Shown one piece after another: positions 4,197 to 10,563 of a stretch of DNA of 22,230 nt. Position numbers and translations under genes: made by a program. The notes beneath the pieces were generated by a model that saw nothing but the letters and a program-made list of their open reading frames with translations, had not been told where the DNA came from and searched no databases. This DNA is from a virus (Duplodnaviria > Heunggongvirae > Uroviricota > Caudoviricetes). The DNA is taken from positions 1-22,230 of IMG/VR virus record IMGVR_UViG_3300029567_000333. One strand, 5' to 3'. Within the stretch, counting starts at the first letter, position 1. The number at the start of each line of letters is the position of its first letter.

Positions 4197-4885
4197 GTCG
4201 GTTTATCCGTTGCATTGGAATTTATTGTTGACCCACCACTTTGTACTCCTGAAACAGAATGTTTGTGATTGTTATAGTTGTCCCTTAAATTTTTAACAGT
4301 AGATGACTGTGAACTTGCGTTATCCTGAATATCACCGCTAACTTTAAGTAAAGGAGTATTCATGTTGACCCCATTAGGAGCATCAATATTTAACGATGAA
4401 CATTTAATATTTAGTGGGTTAGGTGTGGTTATGTTTATTGCACCATCAGCAAATTCAATGAATTGAGTAGGTGCAATATTTAATACCCCACCAAGATAAA
4501 TTGCATCAGATTTACTGTGTCGCCTTTTGCTTCCAGGTACTGATTCTTTACGATTTTTTCTTACCAGTGATGTGTCTTTGTCGCAGACAGCAATCAGACC
4601 AATATCACCTGCCACAGGGTCCATAATTACAGCACTGTTGCCTCTCTGCAACCGCCATACAGGAATATCATATAAAACCGAGTTAGAAATCATTTTTCCT
4701 GTACGGTCTGTTCTGGTTAGTAAAGGAAGAGCGTCAACAACTAAATCCGGTGCTTCCCCCCTGACTTCATGAACTATCGCTAACTCAATGAAGAAATATC
4801 CAGACATCATCATCTCAAAAATATATTCCTGAGATTGAGCCTCACTTACCTGAGCAGTCGTTGGAGTAAATAGTTGCTTATCCAT
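4193..4885 (-). CDS. baseplate spike / gpV-like protein (start moved to the internal ATG at 4885)
   Basis: The ORF-track N-terminus overlaps the upstream gene by 100 nt. The internal ATG (MDKQLF...) overlaps the upstream stop by only 8 nt. Contains VWRLQRGNSAVIMDPVAGDIGLIAV, reminiscent of spike proteins. Confidence 0.45.
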   Translation of the reverse strand: MDKQLFTPTTAQVSEAQSQEYIFEMMMSGYFFIELAIVHEVRGEAPDLVVDALPLLTRTDRTGKMISNSVLYDIPVWRLQRGNSAVIMDPVAGDIGLIAVCDKDTSLVRKNRKESVPGSKRRHSKSDAIYLGGVLNIAPTQFIEFADGAINITTPNPLNIKCSSLNIDAPNGVNMNTPLLKVSGDIQDNASSQSSTVKNLRDNYNNHKHSVSGVQSGGSTINSNATDKPT

Positions 4886-6054: not shown

Positions 6055-6866
6055 GTGCTCGCCTTAACTATATTTTTTGCAATATCTGCCGCTTTTTTTG
6101 TTGCGCTGTTTGTAACTTCGAGTATTGGTTTGGACACCGTATCAAGAGCACTCTGAAATTCAGTCTTGATTGTGTCGGAGATTTTTCCAGTGATGTCGCC
6201 AACAGATGACTTCAGTGATGACCATGATTTACTTAGCTCATCGACAGTAGATTCCCTGGCTCCGCCATTGGTTATTTGCGGATCAACTCCTACATCTCCC
6301 TGTGACTTATTGTTATCCGTTGGCTTCTGTTCTGACTGAGATCCAGAGAGGATAACCTCCATTTGCTGAATGACCTCCTGAAAATCAAGATAAACCGTCA
6401 GAAGAGTCACCCCTTTTTGAGAGTTAACTTCGTAATAGTGGTCAACAAGGTCGAAACTCTCCAGAGTTTCCTTTGGCGTTTCAATATCGTATGTTTTTGC
6501 AGAGGACAGCATCGTTTTGATTGTGTTCAGCGTGCTGTTCTGGCTTGTGAATGTGAGATCGAAAATATTCGGGATATTGCCGGAAAAACCAGTAAGACCA
6601 TTTACGATGATTGCGCATCTTACTCTGGCTGGTTCTTTAACTTTGTTGATGGACTGGTATTTCCCTTTCTCCACCGGAGCATTTGTTATTTGCGCCCTTC
6701 CGCTTGGCTGTACGGATGCCATACCACTGAACTCAAGAGCAACCTCGCCAGTTTCCCTGTCACGAATCACATACTGGGGATGCAGAACGCTGTCGATGAT
6801 CGAAAGCGGAGAGCCACCACCGATAGCATTGAATATGTCTGCTGTGTTTAAATCGATTATGCTCAT
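6051..6866 (-). CDS. tail protein, first gene after the accessory island
   Basis: 271 aa. GGAGAG Shine-Dalgarno before the ATG at 6866. Begins 12 nt 3' of a terminator hairpin. Confidence 0.5.
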   Translation of the reverse strand: MSIIDLNTADIFNAIGGGSPLSIIDSVLHPQYVIRDRETGEVALEFSGMASVQPSGRAQITNAPVEKGKYQSINKVKEPARVRCAIIVNGLTGFSGNIPNIFDLTFTSQNSTLNTIKTMLSSAKTYDIETPKETLESFDLVDHYYEVNSQKGVTLLTVYLDFQEVIQQMEVILSGSQSEQKPTDNNKSQGDVGVDPQITNGGARESTVDELSKSWSSLKSSVGDITGKISDTIKTEFQSALDTVSKPILEVTNSATKKAADIAKNIVKAST

Positions 6867-6884
6867 CTACTCTCCATTAAACAA

Positions 6885-6906
6885 AAACCCAGTCGAAGCT
6901 GGGTTT
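6885..6906 (-). terminator. rho-independent terminator, minus strand
   Basis: AAACCCAG / CTGGGTTT stem with a 6-nt loop. On the minus strand it is followed by TTTTTGTTT. Lies just 3' of the 73-aa gene. Confidence 0.6.
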
Positions 6907-6916
6907 AGTGAATTGG

Positions 6917-7138
6917 CTAGTTATCAAAAAGTCCGTACGTTTCTTCTTCTTCAGGAGTAAGGGGAAGAATCTCAATTCTATCTATAGATACCTTTTCAAT
7001 GTACCCATGAGGTCTGCTTAAAATTAAAGCTCTCTCATGCCACAAAACACCAAGAATGTGATATCTCCCAGCATCGCCTTTTACCCTGGCTCTTCCTTTG
7101 ATTCTTGGCGGCATAATGCCATATTTTTTCTTTGCCAT
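6917..7138 (-). CDS. hypothetical small basic protein (73 aa)
   Basis: Start ATG shares a base with the upstream TAA (TAATG), suggesting translational coupling. No family recognised. Confidence 0.45.
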   Translation of the reverse strand: MAKKKYGIMPPRIKGRARVKGDAGRYHILGVLWHERALILSRPHGYIEKVSIDRIEILPLTPEEEETYGLFDN

Positions 7139-7866
7139 TATGCAACATTACTCCCATGAACCAGGTGTTGTAGTGCTTTAACACCTTCCGCATTGTAGCG
7201 GAATGCTTCCACCTGTTTGCTGGAATGCGCAGATTTATCCAGGAAGAACTTCCCGTACTGCTCAGTTTTGAGGTTGTTTGCGTTAGCAATGCGACCAATC
7301 TTGTTGGCCGTTACTCCAAGCTGCTCTGCAACCTCCCCTGCTGAGTAGTAATGCTCTTCTATTGCTGGAAGAGGTATTGCATTAAAACCAACGATCGGGT
7401 TGATTATGCTTGCTGCCGCAGTCTGCTTTGCTTCCGGCGCAAGATTTGGCATCAAATCGAACAGATTGGTAACAGCTTCAACCGTCATTTTCAATGTTCG
7501 CGCCTGGCGATACTCAACAAGTCCACTAGACGATTTACCGCTTTTAATGTGCGCTTCTTGCATACTTTCAAGTTGGTCTACAAGTGAGCGGCGAACAGCT
7601 TTAGATTCACGAGCAGCCACTCGAAGGGCTTGCTTAATTGACATAACAACTTTTTCAGAAGTTGTCTTGTTTGATTTTTGAACTACGAAAATTTCGTAGT
7701 GCTCACCTTCAAGTTCATCCTTAATGCGTGCAATAAAGTCGTTATTGCGGACTTCTTTTTCCCCGCACTGTCTACGAGCATGATTGACCATCTCTAACAG
7801 GTACTGGCTATCAATGGTTTTATCCGTGACAACGGATCCGATGTTTGCTACATTCTTAAAAGTCAT
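7138..7866 (-). CDS. putative phage regulatory protein (possibly antirepressor-like)
   Basis: 242 aa from the internal ATG at 7866, which has an AAGGA Shine-Dalgarno 7 nt upstream. The longer ORF-track N-terminus would run through a terminator hairpin. Only a weak resemblance to the N-terminal region of phage Rha/antirepressor-type regulators (TIDSQYLLEMVNHARRQCGEKEVRNNDFIARIKDEL); the call rests mainly on position directly downstream of ant. Confidence 0.4.
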   Translation of the reverse strand: MTFKNVANIGSVVTDKTIDSQYLLEMVNHARRQCGEKEVRNNDFIARIKDELEGEHYEIFVVQKSNKTTSEKVVMSIKQALRVAARESKAVRRSLVDQLESMQEAHIKSGKSSSGLVEYRQARTLKMTVEAVTNLFDLMPNLAPEAKQTAAASIINPIVGFNAIPLPAIEEHYYSAGEVAEQLGVTANKIGRIANANNLKTEQYGKFFLDKSAHSSKQVEAFRYNAEGVKALQHLVHGSNVA

Positions 7867-7904
7867 TAGGCATTCCTTATGTGGTAGTAAGGGTGTGACA
7901 TAGG

Positions 7905-7933
7905 CCGCCAGCTGCACACTGGCGGTTTTTTTT
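7905..7933 (+). terminator. rho-independent terminator oriented on the plus strand
   Basis: CCGCCAG-ctgcaca-CTGGCGG (7-bp stem, 7-nt loop) followed by eight T (7926-7933). On the minus strand the hairpin is followed by CCUAUG, not a U-run. Sits between ant and the next minus-strand gene. Confidence 0.6.
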
Positions 7934-7950
7934 CACCACCAGATGCGTCA

Positions 7951-8967
7951 TTAATACAGATGAACAGAAGGCGGTAATTCTTTATTCTTAAGCCTTATCC
8001 ATGCAGAAAGATTTGTTGGTCCGTCTGGCTCATTGATATCAACATCTCGTGTGTGGTTGATTAAAACGTCTCTCGCCGTTCCGATAACATACGAGAACTC
8101 ATGACCGTAGTCGTAGCATCTGCCGGAATAGTTCGATTGAATTTGTTTTAATGCCGGATACAGTTCGCGGAATAATGCCTGTGAGCGGTTGGCATAATCC
8201 CATAACCATACAAGGCTGTTTGCTTCTTTTGCGGAAAGCTCGTTGGTGCTCTTCTCTTGTTTGCTAATGAACTCACCTTCAAGTGGAACTCGAGCTGCAA
8301 GTGACAGTGCTTCGGTAAACTGCTCCTCACTGATTTCTTTGTACGAACATCCAAAATGGGATTTCAGTGACGACCACATGGTGATCATCGCCTTCGCCTG
8401 TTTTTCTTTTGGCAGAGACTGACCGCGACTCATGACAAGTTGTTTAATGGCTTCCTGCTGTTCAGTGGTGATTTTGCCCGGCAACGCCTTTTTAGCTTTG
8501 CGCGGGTTAACCACATGGCCTTTAGTCCAGTAGTCATGCAGCACAGTAAAGCATTCTTCCTGGTACTGAATCAGTTTATCGCGGATGTCAGCACGAACTT
8601 TCTCAGGGTTGATGCTGAACAGCCATCCATTTAACTTCTTCAAAGGAAGGCAGAGTAGCTTACGAAGCTTCCCATCAGCAGCAACCATATTCATATGAAT
8701 ACAGTTGAACTTATCTAGTTGTTTCATAAGTTTTTGTTGCTGAGTACCCCAGCTCATTCCGAGGTTTTCAACGATTGGCTTCATCGCAACATATGCAACT
8801 CCTGCAGCCATGGCGGTGATAATTTGCTGACCGTTGAAGGGTACGTAAGAGGTGTTCACTGCTTCTAAAATTGCTATACTATTCATATCAGTTTTCTCGT
8901 AGTTAACTGGTAATTTAGAAGCCTCAATGGTTGCAGCCATTGGGGCTTCGCTGTTTTTAGCGACCAT
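7951..8967 (-). CDS. ant: antirepressor (Ant-like)
   Basis: N-terminal region ([37 protein letters not shown]...[16 protein letters not shown]) has the shape of phage antirepressor N-terminal domains. Lies directly 3' of an Arc-like gene and divergent from an Mnt-like gene, as in P22 immI. ATG at 8967 has a GAGGTGG Shine-Dalgarno and overlaps the arc-like stop by 11 nt. A start at 8886 is also possible. Confidence 0.65.
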
Positions 8968-9130
8968 TCGCCACCTCTTCCCTAACACCTTTTGCCAGCA
9001 AACGAACAATTGCAGAGTTCAGAGATATACAGTCCATTTCCGCCAGGCGGCGAAGGTCTTCATTCAGCCGTGATGGAAGGCGAAGGTTGAGTTTGATATT
9101 TTTGCGCTCAGTGAAAAGTGTATCTTGCAT
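8957..9130 (-). CDS. arc: Arc-like ribbon-helix-helix repressor (57 aa, missed by the ORF track)
   Basis: Translation [57 protein letters not shown] has the beta-strand plus two helices layout of the Arc/MetJ family. AAGGAG Shine-Dalgarno 9 nt before the ATG at 9130. Confidence 0.7.
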
Positions 9131-9236
9131 TATCTAATCTCCTTTATTTGGTGCCAAAGTGACGCCATGAAGGCCATAATGCCACCATTGAAATCGTATG
9201 GCAATATGGCACCATGGTTTTTTTGAGAGATTTGCA
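9131..9236. promoter_or_regulatory. divergent promoter/operator region between the arc-ant and mnt-like genes
   Basis: Minus strand: TTGCCA (9204-9199), 17-nt spacer, CATTAT (9181-9176). Plus strand: CATAAT at 9175-9180, so the two -10 hexamers overlap. Dense GCCAT/ATGGC and GGTGCCA/TGGCACC inverted motifs are candidate operator half-sites. Confidence 0.45.
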
Positions 9237-9557
9237 ATGGCCGAAAAACAAGTAAAAGACTACGACAAGTTCAACCTCCGTTTTCCTGACGGAATGCGAG
9301 ATGCTATAGCTGAACGAGCTAAACGTAACGGCAGATCAATGAACTCAGAGATTGTGCAGATACTGGAAGATGCCTTGAATGCAGAAAATACTCTTGGGGA
9401 AATAGCAGACAAAATCAACAGCGTCTCGGTTCCGCTAAATGTTGATGCGCTAGTTCAACTTCAAGCCCAGGTTATCGCCATGCAAAAAGAAATACAGGAA
9501 AAGTTCAGAGAGCAAAACGAAAAGTTAAGAGAACTGCTAAACAAAAAACCCACCTGA
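9237..9557 (+). CDS. mnt: Mnt-like ribbon-helix-helix repressor
   Basis: FNLRFPDGMRDAIAERAKRNGRSMNSEIVQILEDAL closely matches the Mnt/Arc DNA-binding region as I recall it (FNFRMP...EANGRSMNSELLQIVQDAL in P22 Mnt). C-terminal half is heptad-like and coiled-coil-prone. Start taken at the ATG at 9237 (GAGAGA Shine-Dalgarno); the longer N-terminus from 9198 has none. Confidence 0.85.
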   Translation: MAEKQVKDYDKFNLRFPDGMRDAIAERAKRNGRSMNSEIVQILEDALNAENTLGEIADKINSVSVPLNVDALVQLQAQVIAMQKEIQEKFREQNEKLRELLNKKPT

Positions 9558-9570
9558 CGGTGGGTTTTTC
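9543..9570. terminator. bidirectional rho-independent terminator between convergent genes
   Basis: A-run (9543-9548), CCCACC-tgac-GGTGGG stem-loop, then TTTTT (9565-9569). The mnt-like stop TGA lies in the loop, and the convergent minus-strand gene ends at 9571. Confidence 0.75.
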
Positions 9571-10563
9571 TTATTCTTTATCTTTTAAGTCGATGGTTCT
9601 TTGTCCAATAACCTTTTCATCTATGTATTTCTCATACTCTTCTCGAGTATCAGAAACCATTGCAATACCAGTAACCTTACCTATTTGGGTTCTAAGAGCT
9701 TTAACTCCAACCTCTGATAAAAACTGGTGTATTTTATCGTTTTTGCTGCCTTTCTCTTCTTTTGACGTTTTTGCTAAATTAAATACCTTTCCTTCACTTC
9801 TGGCTAATGGGTAGTAAATGTGATCTATCGTAAGATATTTAAACGCCCACGGTCGCCCTCTAACTGGTTTGTCTATACCATACAGACGATACCAATGCTC
9901 ATAAAGTTCAGGGGTGAACTCTCTTTCATACTCACGAGCCTCTTCAGCAACATATCGCTTATATGCTTGAATTACTTCTTCTTTTGTTCTGTCATACCCT
10001 GCCAAAGCATAAACAAGCCCCTGAATTCCCGCCTTGGCTGATGCATCAATAATTATCCTGGCTTGCTTAGCAATCCCTTCCTGACTAGAAAGCAACTTAC
10101 CTTCAGCTTTAGCGTTAGAGATTGCTCGACATAAATCAATTAAGATTGTTACATCGTAGCCATGTATTACAGGGTTAGCTGGTGTGTTCGTGCCCACCTG
10201 TTTGTATTGAAAAATAAGAGGATTTTCAAGTTTTGCCCTTAATTCATGCCCGATATACTGAGAAATAGTTTTCCCCTGAATAAACTTTGGCAACCTGCTG
10301 CCACCTTCGCCAAGACCAATCGCTTCTCCCATGCCTCTCTGGCTAATAACGGCAGTTTTGTTATCATCATTTAACACATAGCACTCAACATCAATCCCGA
10401 ATTCATGCTGGAACGATCCCTTATGCGTAGCAATTAATGGTTTATCCTTCCATCTTGCAGCCGCTGCTTTCTTTGCTATTTCAGAACGCTGCTCTTTAGT
10501 CAGCGACTTTGCGCGAGCGATTCCGCCCTTAGCTTTCCCTTCACCACTTTTCTTTTCAGTCAT
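9571..10563 (-). CDS. hypothetical protein, possibly P63C-domain-like; function unknown
   Basis: 330 aa from the ATG at 10563, which has an AAGGTG Shine-Dalgarno 8 nt upstream. Basic N-terminus (KKSGEGKAKGGIARAKSLTKEQRSEIAKKAAAARWK). The gene is visibly more AT-rich than the structural genes. The P63C resemblance is from memory and unverified. Confidence 0.45.
   Translation of the reverse strand: MTEKKSGEGKAKGGIARAKSLTKEQRSEIAKKAAAARWKDKPLIATHKGSFQHEFGIDVECYVLNDDNKTAVISQRGMGEAIGLGEGGSRLPKFIQGKTISQYIGHELRAKLENPLIFQYKQVGTNTPANPVIHGYDVTILIDLCRAISNAKAEGKLLSSQEGIAKQARIIIDASAKAGIQGLVYALAGYDRTKEEVIQAYKRYVAEEAREYEREFTPELYEHWYRLYGIDKPVRGRPWAFKYLTIDHIYYPLARSEGKVFNLAKTSKEEKGSKNDKIHQFLSEVGVKALRTQIGKVTGIAMVSDTREEYEKYIDEKVIGQRTIDLKDKE

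Follow-up and report, generated by a model that had tools for sequence, protein, structure and literature searches.

The 84-nt spacer between the antirepressor gene ant and the gene behind it, here called X, holds a hairpin and T-run that we read as the terminator of a small cis-encoded antisense RNA gene, predicted to cover the Shine-Dalgarno sequence and start codon of X; we give this reading a probability of about 0.68. Both genes lie in a 22,230-nucleotide stretch of viral DNA (Caudoviricetes; IMG/VR record IMGVR_UViG_3300029567_000333, positions 1 to 22,230), which we call the window, on a minus-strand operon in the order Pant, arc, ant, X, orf73, operon terminator. A first-pass annotation of the sequence had suggested, from an orphan plus-strand terminator between two minus-strand genes, an antisense RNA resembling sar of phage P22, and the comparisons reported here support an antisense interpretation of the sar kind. 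The predicted RNA, for which we use the working name asX, would be about 70 nt long and occupy 7861-7933 on the plus strand, its 5' end placed 7 nt past the -10 element of a predicted promoter (P_asX) and its 3' end in the T-run. We infer the firing of P_asX, the exact ends of the RNA and the repression of X translation from sequence comparison.

On the plus strand, the hairpin consists of a stem arm CCGCCAG (7905-7911), a loop ctgcaca (7912-7918), a second stem arm CTGGCGG (7919-7925) and eight T residues (7926-7933), exactly as the first-pass annotation had described it. Counting the A-T and G·T pairs on its flanks, the stem comes to ten pairs (7902-7911 with 7919-7928), so that the terminator as a whole spans 7902-7933, and the hairpin alone folds at about -14.9 kcal/mol. 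In the minus-strand reading, what comes after the hairpin is CCTATGTCAC, with no U-run, and the hairpin can therefore terminate plus-strand transcripts only. A strict scan of both strands of the window (a perfect stem of 7 bp or more with 5 or more G/C, a loop of 3-8, and 7 or more T among the 8 bases that follow) found two sites, 7905-7933 and a minus-strand site at 9548-9565, and none in 100 dinucleotide-preserving shuffles; a looser scan was not significant by itself (5 sites against 3.1 +/- 2.0 expected).

Comparison with related loci makes the case for selection on this structure. GTDB genomes and IMG/VR supplied loci with relatives of X, the most distant at 58% protein identity (genera including Escherichia, Klebsiella, Proteus, Providencia, Dryocola, and Intestinirhabdus); these 161 loci and the window gave 162 sequences, which collapse to 94 unique 160-nt segments around the X start. 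All 94 variants have a G+C-rich hairpin that runs into a T-rich tail, with 19 different stems, among them CCGCCAG/CTGGCGG, GCCGGTAG/CTACCGGC, GCCAATAG/CTATTGGC, GCCGATAG/CTATCGGC, GCCAGCAG/CTGCTGGC, and ACCGTCAG/CTGACGGT, and tails that include TTTTTCTTT, TTTTCTGTTTTT, and TTTTCTATTT; the tail is retained although a mosaic junction directly follows it. In an alignment of 49 sequences, 99.5% of the cells of a nine-pair helix are paired, changes on both sides of the helix compensate each other at three pairs (32 cells), the covariation score was reached in none of 500 shuffles, and pairing is lost when the partner columns are slid; RNAalifold independently predicts the same helix. Strand follows from the wobble pairs: there are 52 wobble cells, each a G·U pair if the RNA is plus-strand and an A·C mismatch if it is minus-strand, and the reverse was never seen. 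Together with the universal T-tail, these plus-only wobbles assign the function to the plus strand, in keeping with the first-pass claim that the terminator works in that direction only. Both marks of an intrinsic terminator are present, a hairpin with a U-run and a structure kept by selection in plus-strand RNA. A bidirectional terminator serving ant was considered and rejected, given the missing minus-strand U-run and the plus-strand specificity of the wobble pairs.

A promoter scan gives a promoter-like site within 7700-7900, the interval in which the first-pass annotation had recommended a search: GTGACA (7826-7831, plus strand, inside X codons 12-14), a 17-bp spacer, and an extended -10 element with TG at 7846-7847, a single c, and TACATT at 7849-7854. 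The consensus match and the pattern of conservation argue strongly for a sigma-70 promoter here, predicted to lie antisense within X codons 5-14. Of 55 distinct 5' coding haplotypes, 53 have GTGACA as the -35 hexamer and two have TCGACG; T1, A2, A4, and T6 of the -10 element show no variation in any haplotype, nor does the TG. In sigma-70 promoters, the -10 positions of greatest weight are T1, A2, and T6. Because the promoter lies within X codons, selection at the nucleotide level can be tested at third-codon positions: those in the -10, TG, and -35 elements have entropies of 0, 0, 0, 0.23, and 0 bits across the haplotypes and are the lowest five of 20 (Mann-Whitney p = 0.0006), the remainder ranging from 0.36 to 1.9 bits. 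Codons 5, 6, and 7 always read ANT, (G/T)TA, and NCA and yet encode N/T/S, L/V, and A/T/S/P, codon 12 specifies eight different residues and ends in T in 53 of 55 haplotypes, and codon 13 is always GTC. Codons 8-11, which make up the spacer, are hypervariable in sequence and constant in number; since none has been gained or lost, the 17-bp spacing is fixed, and the distance from the -10 element to the X ATG is likewise always 9 nt. In Proteus and Providencia (loci L010-L012, L116, L119, L124, and L125, at about 2110-2250), the second gene is a fusion of an unrelated Bro-N N-terminus to the C-terminal part (about half) of X, and here too an antisense TTGACT-18-TACTAT or TTGACT-16-GATAAT lies in the first codons and a hairpin with a T-run lies upstream of the gene.

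The RNA delimited by these two signals has a predicted fold of two stem-loops and -25.1 kcal/mol (z = -2.6 relative to shuffles). A covariance model built from 49 asX homologues, R1, matches the window only at 7860-7935 (65.5 bits) and scores the Proteus and Providencia sites at 30-52 bits. Stem-loop 1 (7863-7900) pairs a 5' GUC, the complement of the start-codon region, with GAC at 7898-7900, and its inner stem CCUUAU/GUAAGG includes the anti-Shine-Dalgarno sequence. The closing helix of stem-loop 1 covaries with X codon 2, appearing as GUCA/UGAC, CUCA/UGGG, GCAU/AUGU, CGUCA/UGACG, and UUGUCA/UGACAA; this was read from per-sequence folds, and the formal count of covarying pairs covers the terminator helix only because MAFFT failed to align stem-loop 1 across leader classes. 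The leader, about 30 nt, is the least conserved part between promoter and terminator (mean pairwise identity 0.65, versus 0.85 for the stem) and falls into about six sequence classes. The predicted 7861-7933 transcript covers both the X ATG (7866-7864) and its Shine-Dalgarno sequence AAGGAA (7878-7873), bearing out the complementarity to the translation start at 7866 that had first been proposed. asX contains no meaningful open reading frame (ORF), and a plus-strand protein gene in the 39-codon ORF at 7784-7903 was rejected since its start is lost or its frame interrupted by stops in most homologues, so that no conserved plus-strand gene lies upstream of the terminator, again as the first-pass annotation held. 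Membership in a known Rfam family was likewise rejected: in a search of 7861-7933 and its surroundings (6500-10000, E <= 10), only chance-level matches to Hrs13 and SgrS (E ~1) overlap the element.

The proposed target, gene X (7138-7866, minus strand, 242 amino acids), is the second antirepressor-type gene of its operon. What had been called a regulator-like gene matches PHROG 1726, 'anti-repressor', over its full length (E = 6.3e-100), which places it in an antirepressor family. Searches against Pfam, NCBIfam, and PDB sequences gave no match, so that PHROGs alone names the family, and we found no experimental test of PHROG 1726 function in the literature. The 5' part of X resembles genes of Shiga toxin (Stx) phages annotated as antirepressor or Roi, and the minus-strand ATG at 7866 is a start codon common to all homologues; together with AAGGAA it forms the proposed asX target (7864-7878, minus strand). 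Stx-phage relatives of X with a different N-terminus (L088-L092) do not have the module. In an Escherichia coli HS prophage (L004, NC_009800.1, 2472-3131), an IS3 element truncates X and the predicted promoter, leader, and terminator, at about 327,800-327,929 of the chromosome, are intact; E. coli strains A10 (NZ_CP028764.1, about 3,012,805-3,013,204) and KCJ3K291 are further carriers of the module. Elsewhere in X, a 38-41-nt stretch (7672-7712) with the palindrome ctacgaaaatttcgtag is 95-100% identical to a site that is found without annotation in many E. coli chromosomes; strain 165 has it in a gap between a small hypothetical gene, beside a phage DNA ejection gene, and a TOPRIM/DUF927 gene. 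The chromosomal site is probably the leftover of an X-like gene.

The comparison with sar is sharpened by a genuine sar homologue in the same operon, over the start of ant (8886-8952, plus strand; Rfam RF00262, 28.6 bits, E = 0.0076), with a Psar of GTGTTC (8852-8857), 17 bp, TGc, and TATACT (8875-8880) whose sequence is the same as that of the epsilon34 promoter, which owes its annotation to similarity to P22 Psar. The hairpin of this sar lies at 8918-8949 and is followed by GCTGTTTTTA. RF00262 has a gathering score of 43, which this match falls short of, and a standard Rfam annotation would therefore overlook it. Since sar already sits over ant, asX is a second element, over the operon's second antirepressor gene. 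The two share much: both belong to the same kind of module (immunity I, immI) and, in the window, to the same operon; asX at about 70 nt is close to the 68-69 nt of P22 sar (RF00262), an antisense regulator of ant; both are predicted to have two stem-loops and are complementary to the ribosome-binding region of the target; and both promoters run antisense through the opening codons of an antirepressor gene and are built of GTGnnn, 17 bp of spacer with TGc at its end, and TAnAnT, the layout of P_asX being that of Psar in epsilon34 and in the window copy. They differ in the target, asX being directed at the PHROG 1726 gene and sar at ant; in position, since asX overlaps the start codon with a predicted start in codon 2 and the epsilon34 sar, as annotated, starts a short way upstream of the ATG; and in the canonical hairpin with a T5-T8 tail that distinguishes asX. 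At the RNA level the likeness stops: RF00262 has no match at 7861-7933 at E <= 10, still less one at its gathering score, and R1 has no match at E <= 10 to the window sar or to epsilon34 (L003, where sar is annotated). A diverged copy of sar was accordingly rejected at the RNA level, where neither covariance model finds the other element, while the promoter layout is shared. The first-pass description of a sar-like element therefore holds for location, promoter layout, size, and two-hairpin shape and fails for RNA homology, and asX is better supported as a functional analogue of sar than as a detectable homologue. Tandem arrangements may be frequent: RF00262 matches lie antisense upstream of X near the expected starts of the first gene in several related operons (L079, L095, L135, and L050), so that tandem control by sar and asX seems common.

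Other phage antisense RNAs offer partial parallels. P22 sar anneals to ant mRNA and blocks translation initiation, and the c4 RNA of phages P1 and P7, also encoded in immI, pairs around the ribosome-binding site of ant mRNA and blocks antirepressor synthesis, its sequence differences defining P1/P7 heteroimmunity (review PMC12197685). The six or so leader classes of asX can be likened to these c4 differences. c4 is cut out of a transcript that it shares with its target and uses short complementary boxes for pairing; asX, by contrast, would be transcribed convergently, from a promoter of its own to a terminator of its own, and would be complementary in full. Lambdoid phages make OOP RNA, a short cis-antisense RNA to cII that affects the lysis-lysogeny decision. 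It has its own promoter and intrinsic terminator and acts by RNase III-dependent decay. OOP overlaps the 3' end of its target and not the translation start, which asX covers.

Several readings dispense with a regulatory antisense RNA. The conserved structure could belong to the minus-strand mRNA only, with leader hairpins that sequester the Shine-Dalgarno sequence and AUG of X, provide a processing or RNase III site between ant and X, or stabilize a processed 5' end, with asX never made. The complement of stem-loop 1 does pair GUCA with AUGAC at the start codon and CCUUA with UAAGG at the Shine-Dalgarno sequence, and covariation by itself does not distinguish strands; the terminator-helix wobbles do, pairing in plus-strand RNA in every case, and an mRNA element would give no role to the T-rich tail kept in every lineage and would leave unexplained the invariant synonymous positions that spell an antisense promoter. 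Fold stability is strand evidence that is moderate and not decisive: the plus-strand version of stem-loop 1 is the more stable in 37 of 53 variants and on average (-7.1 versus -4.5 kcal/mol), and the minus-strand version is about equally or more stable in the other 16. We consider a purely sense-strand element improbable. The terminator could also be an insulator that stops antisense transcription through X before it reaches ant or, in a variant, the promoter could interfere with polymerases from Pant and the RNA be a mere by-product. The terminator does stand exactly at the cassette boundary, and antisense transcripts might come from spurious promoters or, in P22-like genomes, from a convergent Arc/Mnt-family gene beyond orf73; JEP4, E. 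coli HS, and NC22 have a plus-strand Arc-family gene 14-15 bp past orf73 with no room for a terminator of its own. The window, however, has no plus-strand gene downstream of X, only minus-strand tail and baseplate genes, and an insulator would not call for a conserved promoter only about 70 nt from the terminator or for a delimited RNA with a conserved two-hairpin fold that overlaps precisely the Shine-Dalgarno sequence and AUG; P22 sar, with the same layout, is reported to pair with ant mRNA (review PMC12197685). We think the insulator reading, its interference variant included, unlikely.

Least credible is a recombination 'linker' acting as DNA at the module boundary, spread by horizontal exchange and without function as RNA. 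Similarity to other phages and prophages does break exactly at the end of the T-run, and the X cassette follows several kinds of first antirepressor gene. Recombination should conserve sequence, yet the stem changes by compensatory substitutions that keep its pairing, and the structure and T-tail persist in lineages of only 58-65% protein identity. We regard such a linker as having very little chance of being correct.

Some observations count against an antisense RNA gene and temper our confidence in it. The promoter match alone is not significant, 4 promoter-like sites being found in 3 kb against 5.2 expected, and its -10 hexamer TACATT agrees with the consensus at only 4 of 6 positions. The minus-strand stability of stem-loop 1 in those 16 variants belongs here as well, since the leader fold may also have some role in the sense strand. 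No Rfam family, sar included, matches asX, so the sequence has no curated precedent. The shuffle-based and rank statistics overstate independence because the homologues are related by phylogeny. The case as a whole is comparative, and it is from this that we infer transcription of asX and repression of X.

The wider setting of the element is a P22-type immI module, the "ant moron" (PMC2629481), whose insertion site here is a minus-strand block of tail and baseplate genes. The module includes arc (9130-8957, minus strand) and mnt (9234-9557, plus strand), both with a Pfam Arc domain, and promoter scans place a divergent pair between them, Pant (9157-9129, minus strand) and Pmnt (9151-9180, plus strand). 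At 9129-9204 the overlapping divergent promoter-like sites read TTGGCA-17-GATAAT (minus) and GTGCCA-18-CATAAT (plus) and contain the inverted repeats GGTGCCA/TGGCACC; this is probably the Pant/Pmnt region with its operators. The P22-type antirepressor gene ant (7951-8886, minus strand) has Pfam P22_AR_N (E = 1.5e-44) and P22_AR_C (E = 7.5e-30) domains and truly starts at the ATG at 8886, its N-terminus being identical to that of epsilon34 Ant. The mechanically called 352-codon ORF at 7951-9009 (minus strand) is too long for ant, the real start being that ATG, and its extra N-terminal part (KNSEAP...) is the sar hairpin in translation; upstream ORFs of related loci show similar extensions (MLSSNKNSEA..., MLGHKNGEAQ...), which may misdirect gene callers. 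Downstream, orf73 (6917-7138, minus strand; PHROG 4977, to which no function is assigned) always follows X, and the operon ends at a minus-strand terminator (6885-6906), AAACCCAGCTTCGACTGGGTTT and then TTGTTT. Convergent mnt (plus) and a P63C-domain gene (minus) are separated at 9545-9570 by a strong hairpin between an A-run and a T-run (AAAAAACCCACCTGACGGTGGGTTTTT), which looks like a bidirectional terminator and has only weak, chance-level Rfam matches (STnc370, sroH, and RNAI).

Across related loci, an upstream ORF of at least 40 codons ends before X in 161 of the 162 sequences, at a distance of 61-91 nt with one exception; in the main clusters of these upstream ORFs, the representatives have a Bro-N, P22_AR_N, or ORF6N domain together with P22_AR_C or another C-terminus. 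The similarity of the X cassette to other phages and prophages ends at 7933, the last base of the T-run, and the ant cassette matches from about 7960; as the break comes exactly after the T-run, the hairpin is part of the X cassette. Beyond the terminator, phiKp_30 retains about 40 nt from the 3' end of a gene that is called Rha in JEP4 and is itself lost (7933/7960; L001 and L002), which suggests that a Rha-X arrangement predates the ant-X junction of the window. Another locus, the viral contig L018, has a strong RF00262 sar match of 66 bits (4804-4870, minus strand) some 1.6 kb downstream of X, a sign that a second immI-type module may lie beside the X cassette. Among 5,426 complete E. coli genomes, 77 have the asX class nearly identical to that of the window, as do three phage records (JEP4, phiKp_30, and KP12); Klebsiella, Proteus, Providencia, and other Enterobacterales have further classes. 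Public records with the near-identical class annotate only protein-coding sequences and not asX, and the literature that we found, on sar, c4, 24B_1, IsrK, STnc6030, and the 'ant moron', describes no antisense RNA over a second antirepressor gene.

If asX is made as predicted, RNA polymerase would start near 7861 in X codon 2, pass over the ATG, Shine-Dalgarno sequence, and 5' leader, and end transcription at 7926-7933, the strong terminator limiting the antisense transcript to about 70 nt and keeping antisense transcription out of ant. By analogy with sar, asX could then pair with the X initiation region and block ribosome binding, and the duplex may also be a substrate for RNase III cleavage. 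X is preceded by no sense-strand terminator and has no evident promoter of its own, and it is therefore probably read from Pant with arc and ant, or else by read-through from the late operon. Such read-through has precedent: the paper on UAB_Phi20 describes a late promoter that also transcribes arc and ant, and that on epsilon34 describes late-promoter transcription reading through the ant moron. Repressors acting at Pant would be unable to silence read-through messages, and an antisense RNA over each antirepressor start could. asX would in this way be the post-transcriptional brake of X itself, parallel to sar over the ant ribosome-binding site 1 kb upstream.

A more speculative extension, which we think doubtful but worth stating, is that asX and its leader in a resident prophage determine immunity specificity at the RNA level, as c4 does, the prophage making asX constitutively while Pant is repressed and silencing in trans the X gene only of those phages, arriving or already co-resident, that have its own leader class. 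No mutation can disturb the perfect match of a cis-antisense pair, so new specificities could arise freely. If this were true, the two tandem antirepressors would each be locked by a separate RNA, sar and asX, acting independently.

Antirepressors decide whether a prophage stays silent, and P22 sar is a long-studied example of their antisense control. The finding leaves unchanged the principle of antisense control of antirepressor translation, which was already known. The way in which the promoter came to light indicates that one hidden in coding sequence can be detected from synonymous-site conservation alone, and small-RNA genes of the asX kind would be a class that annotation pipelines have missed. 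For the phages themselves, the locus suggests that the widespread "ant moron" often has two tandem antirepressor genes, each with an antisense RNA of its own.

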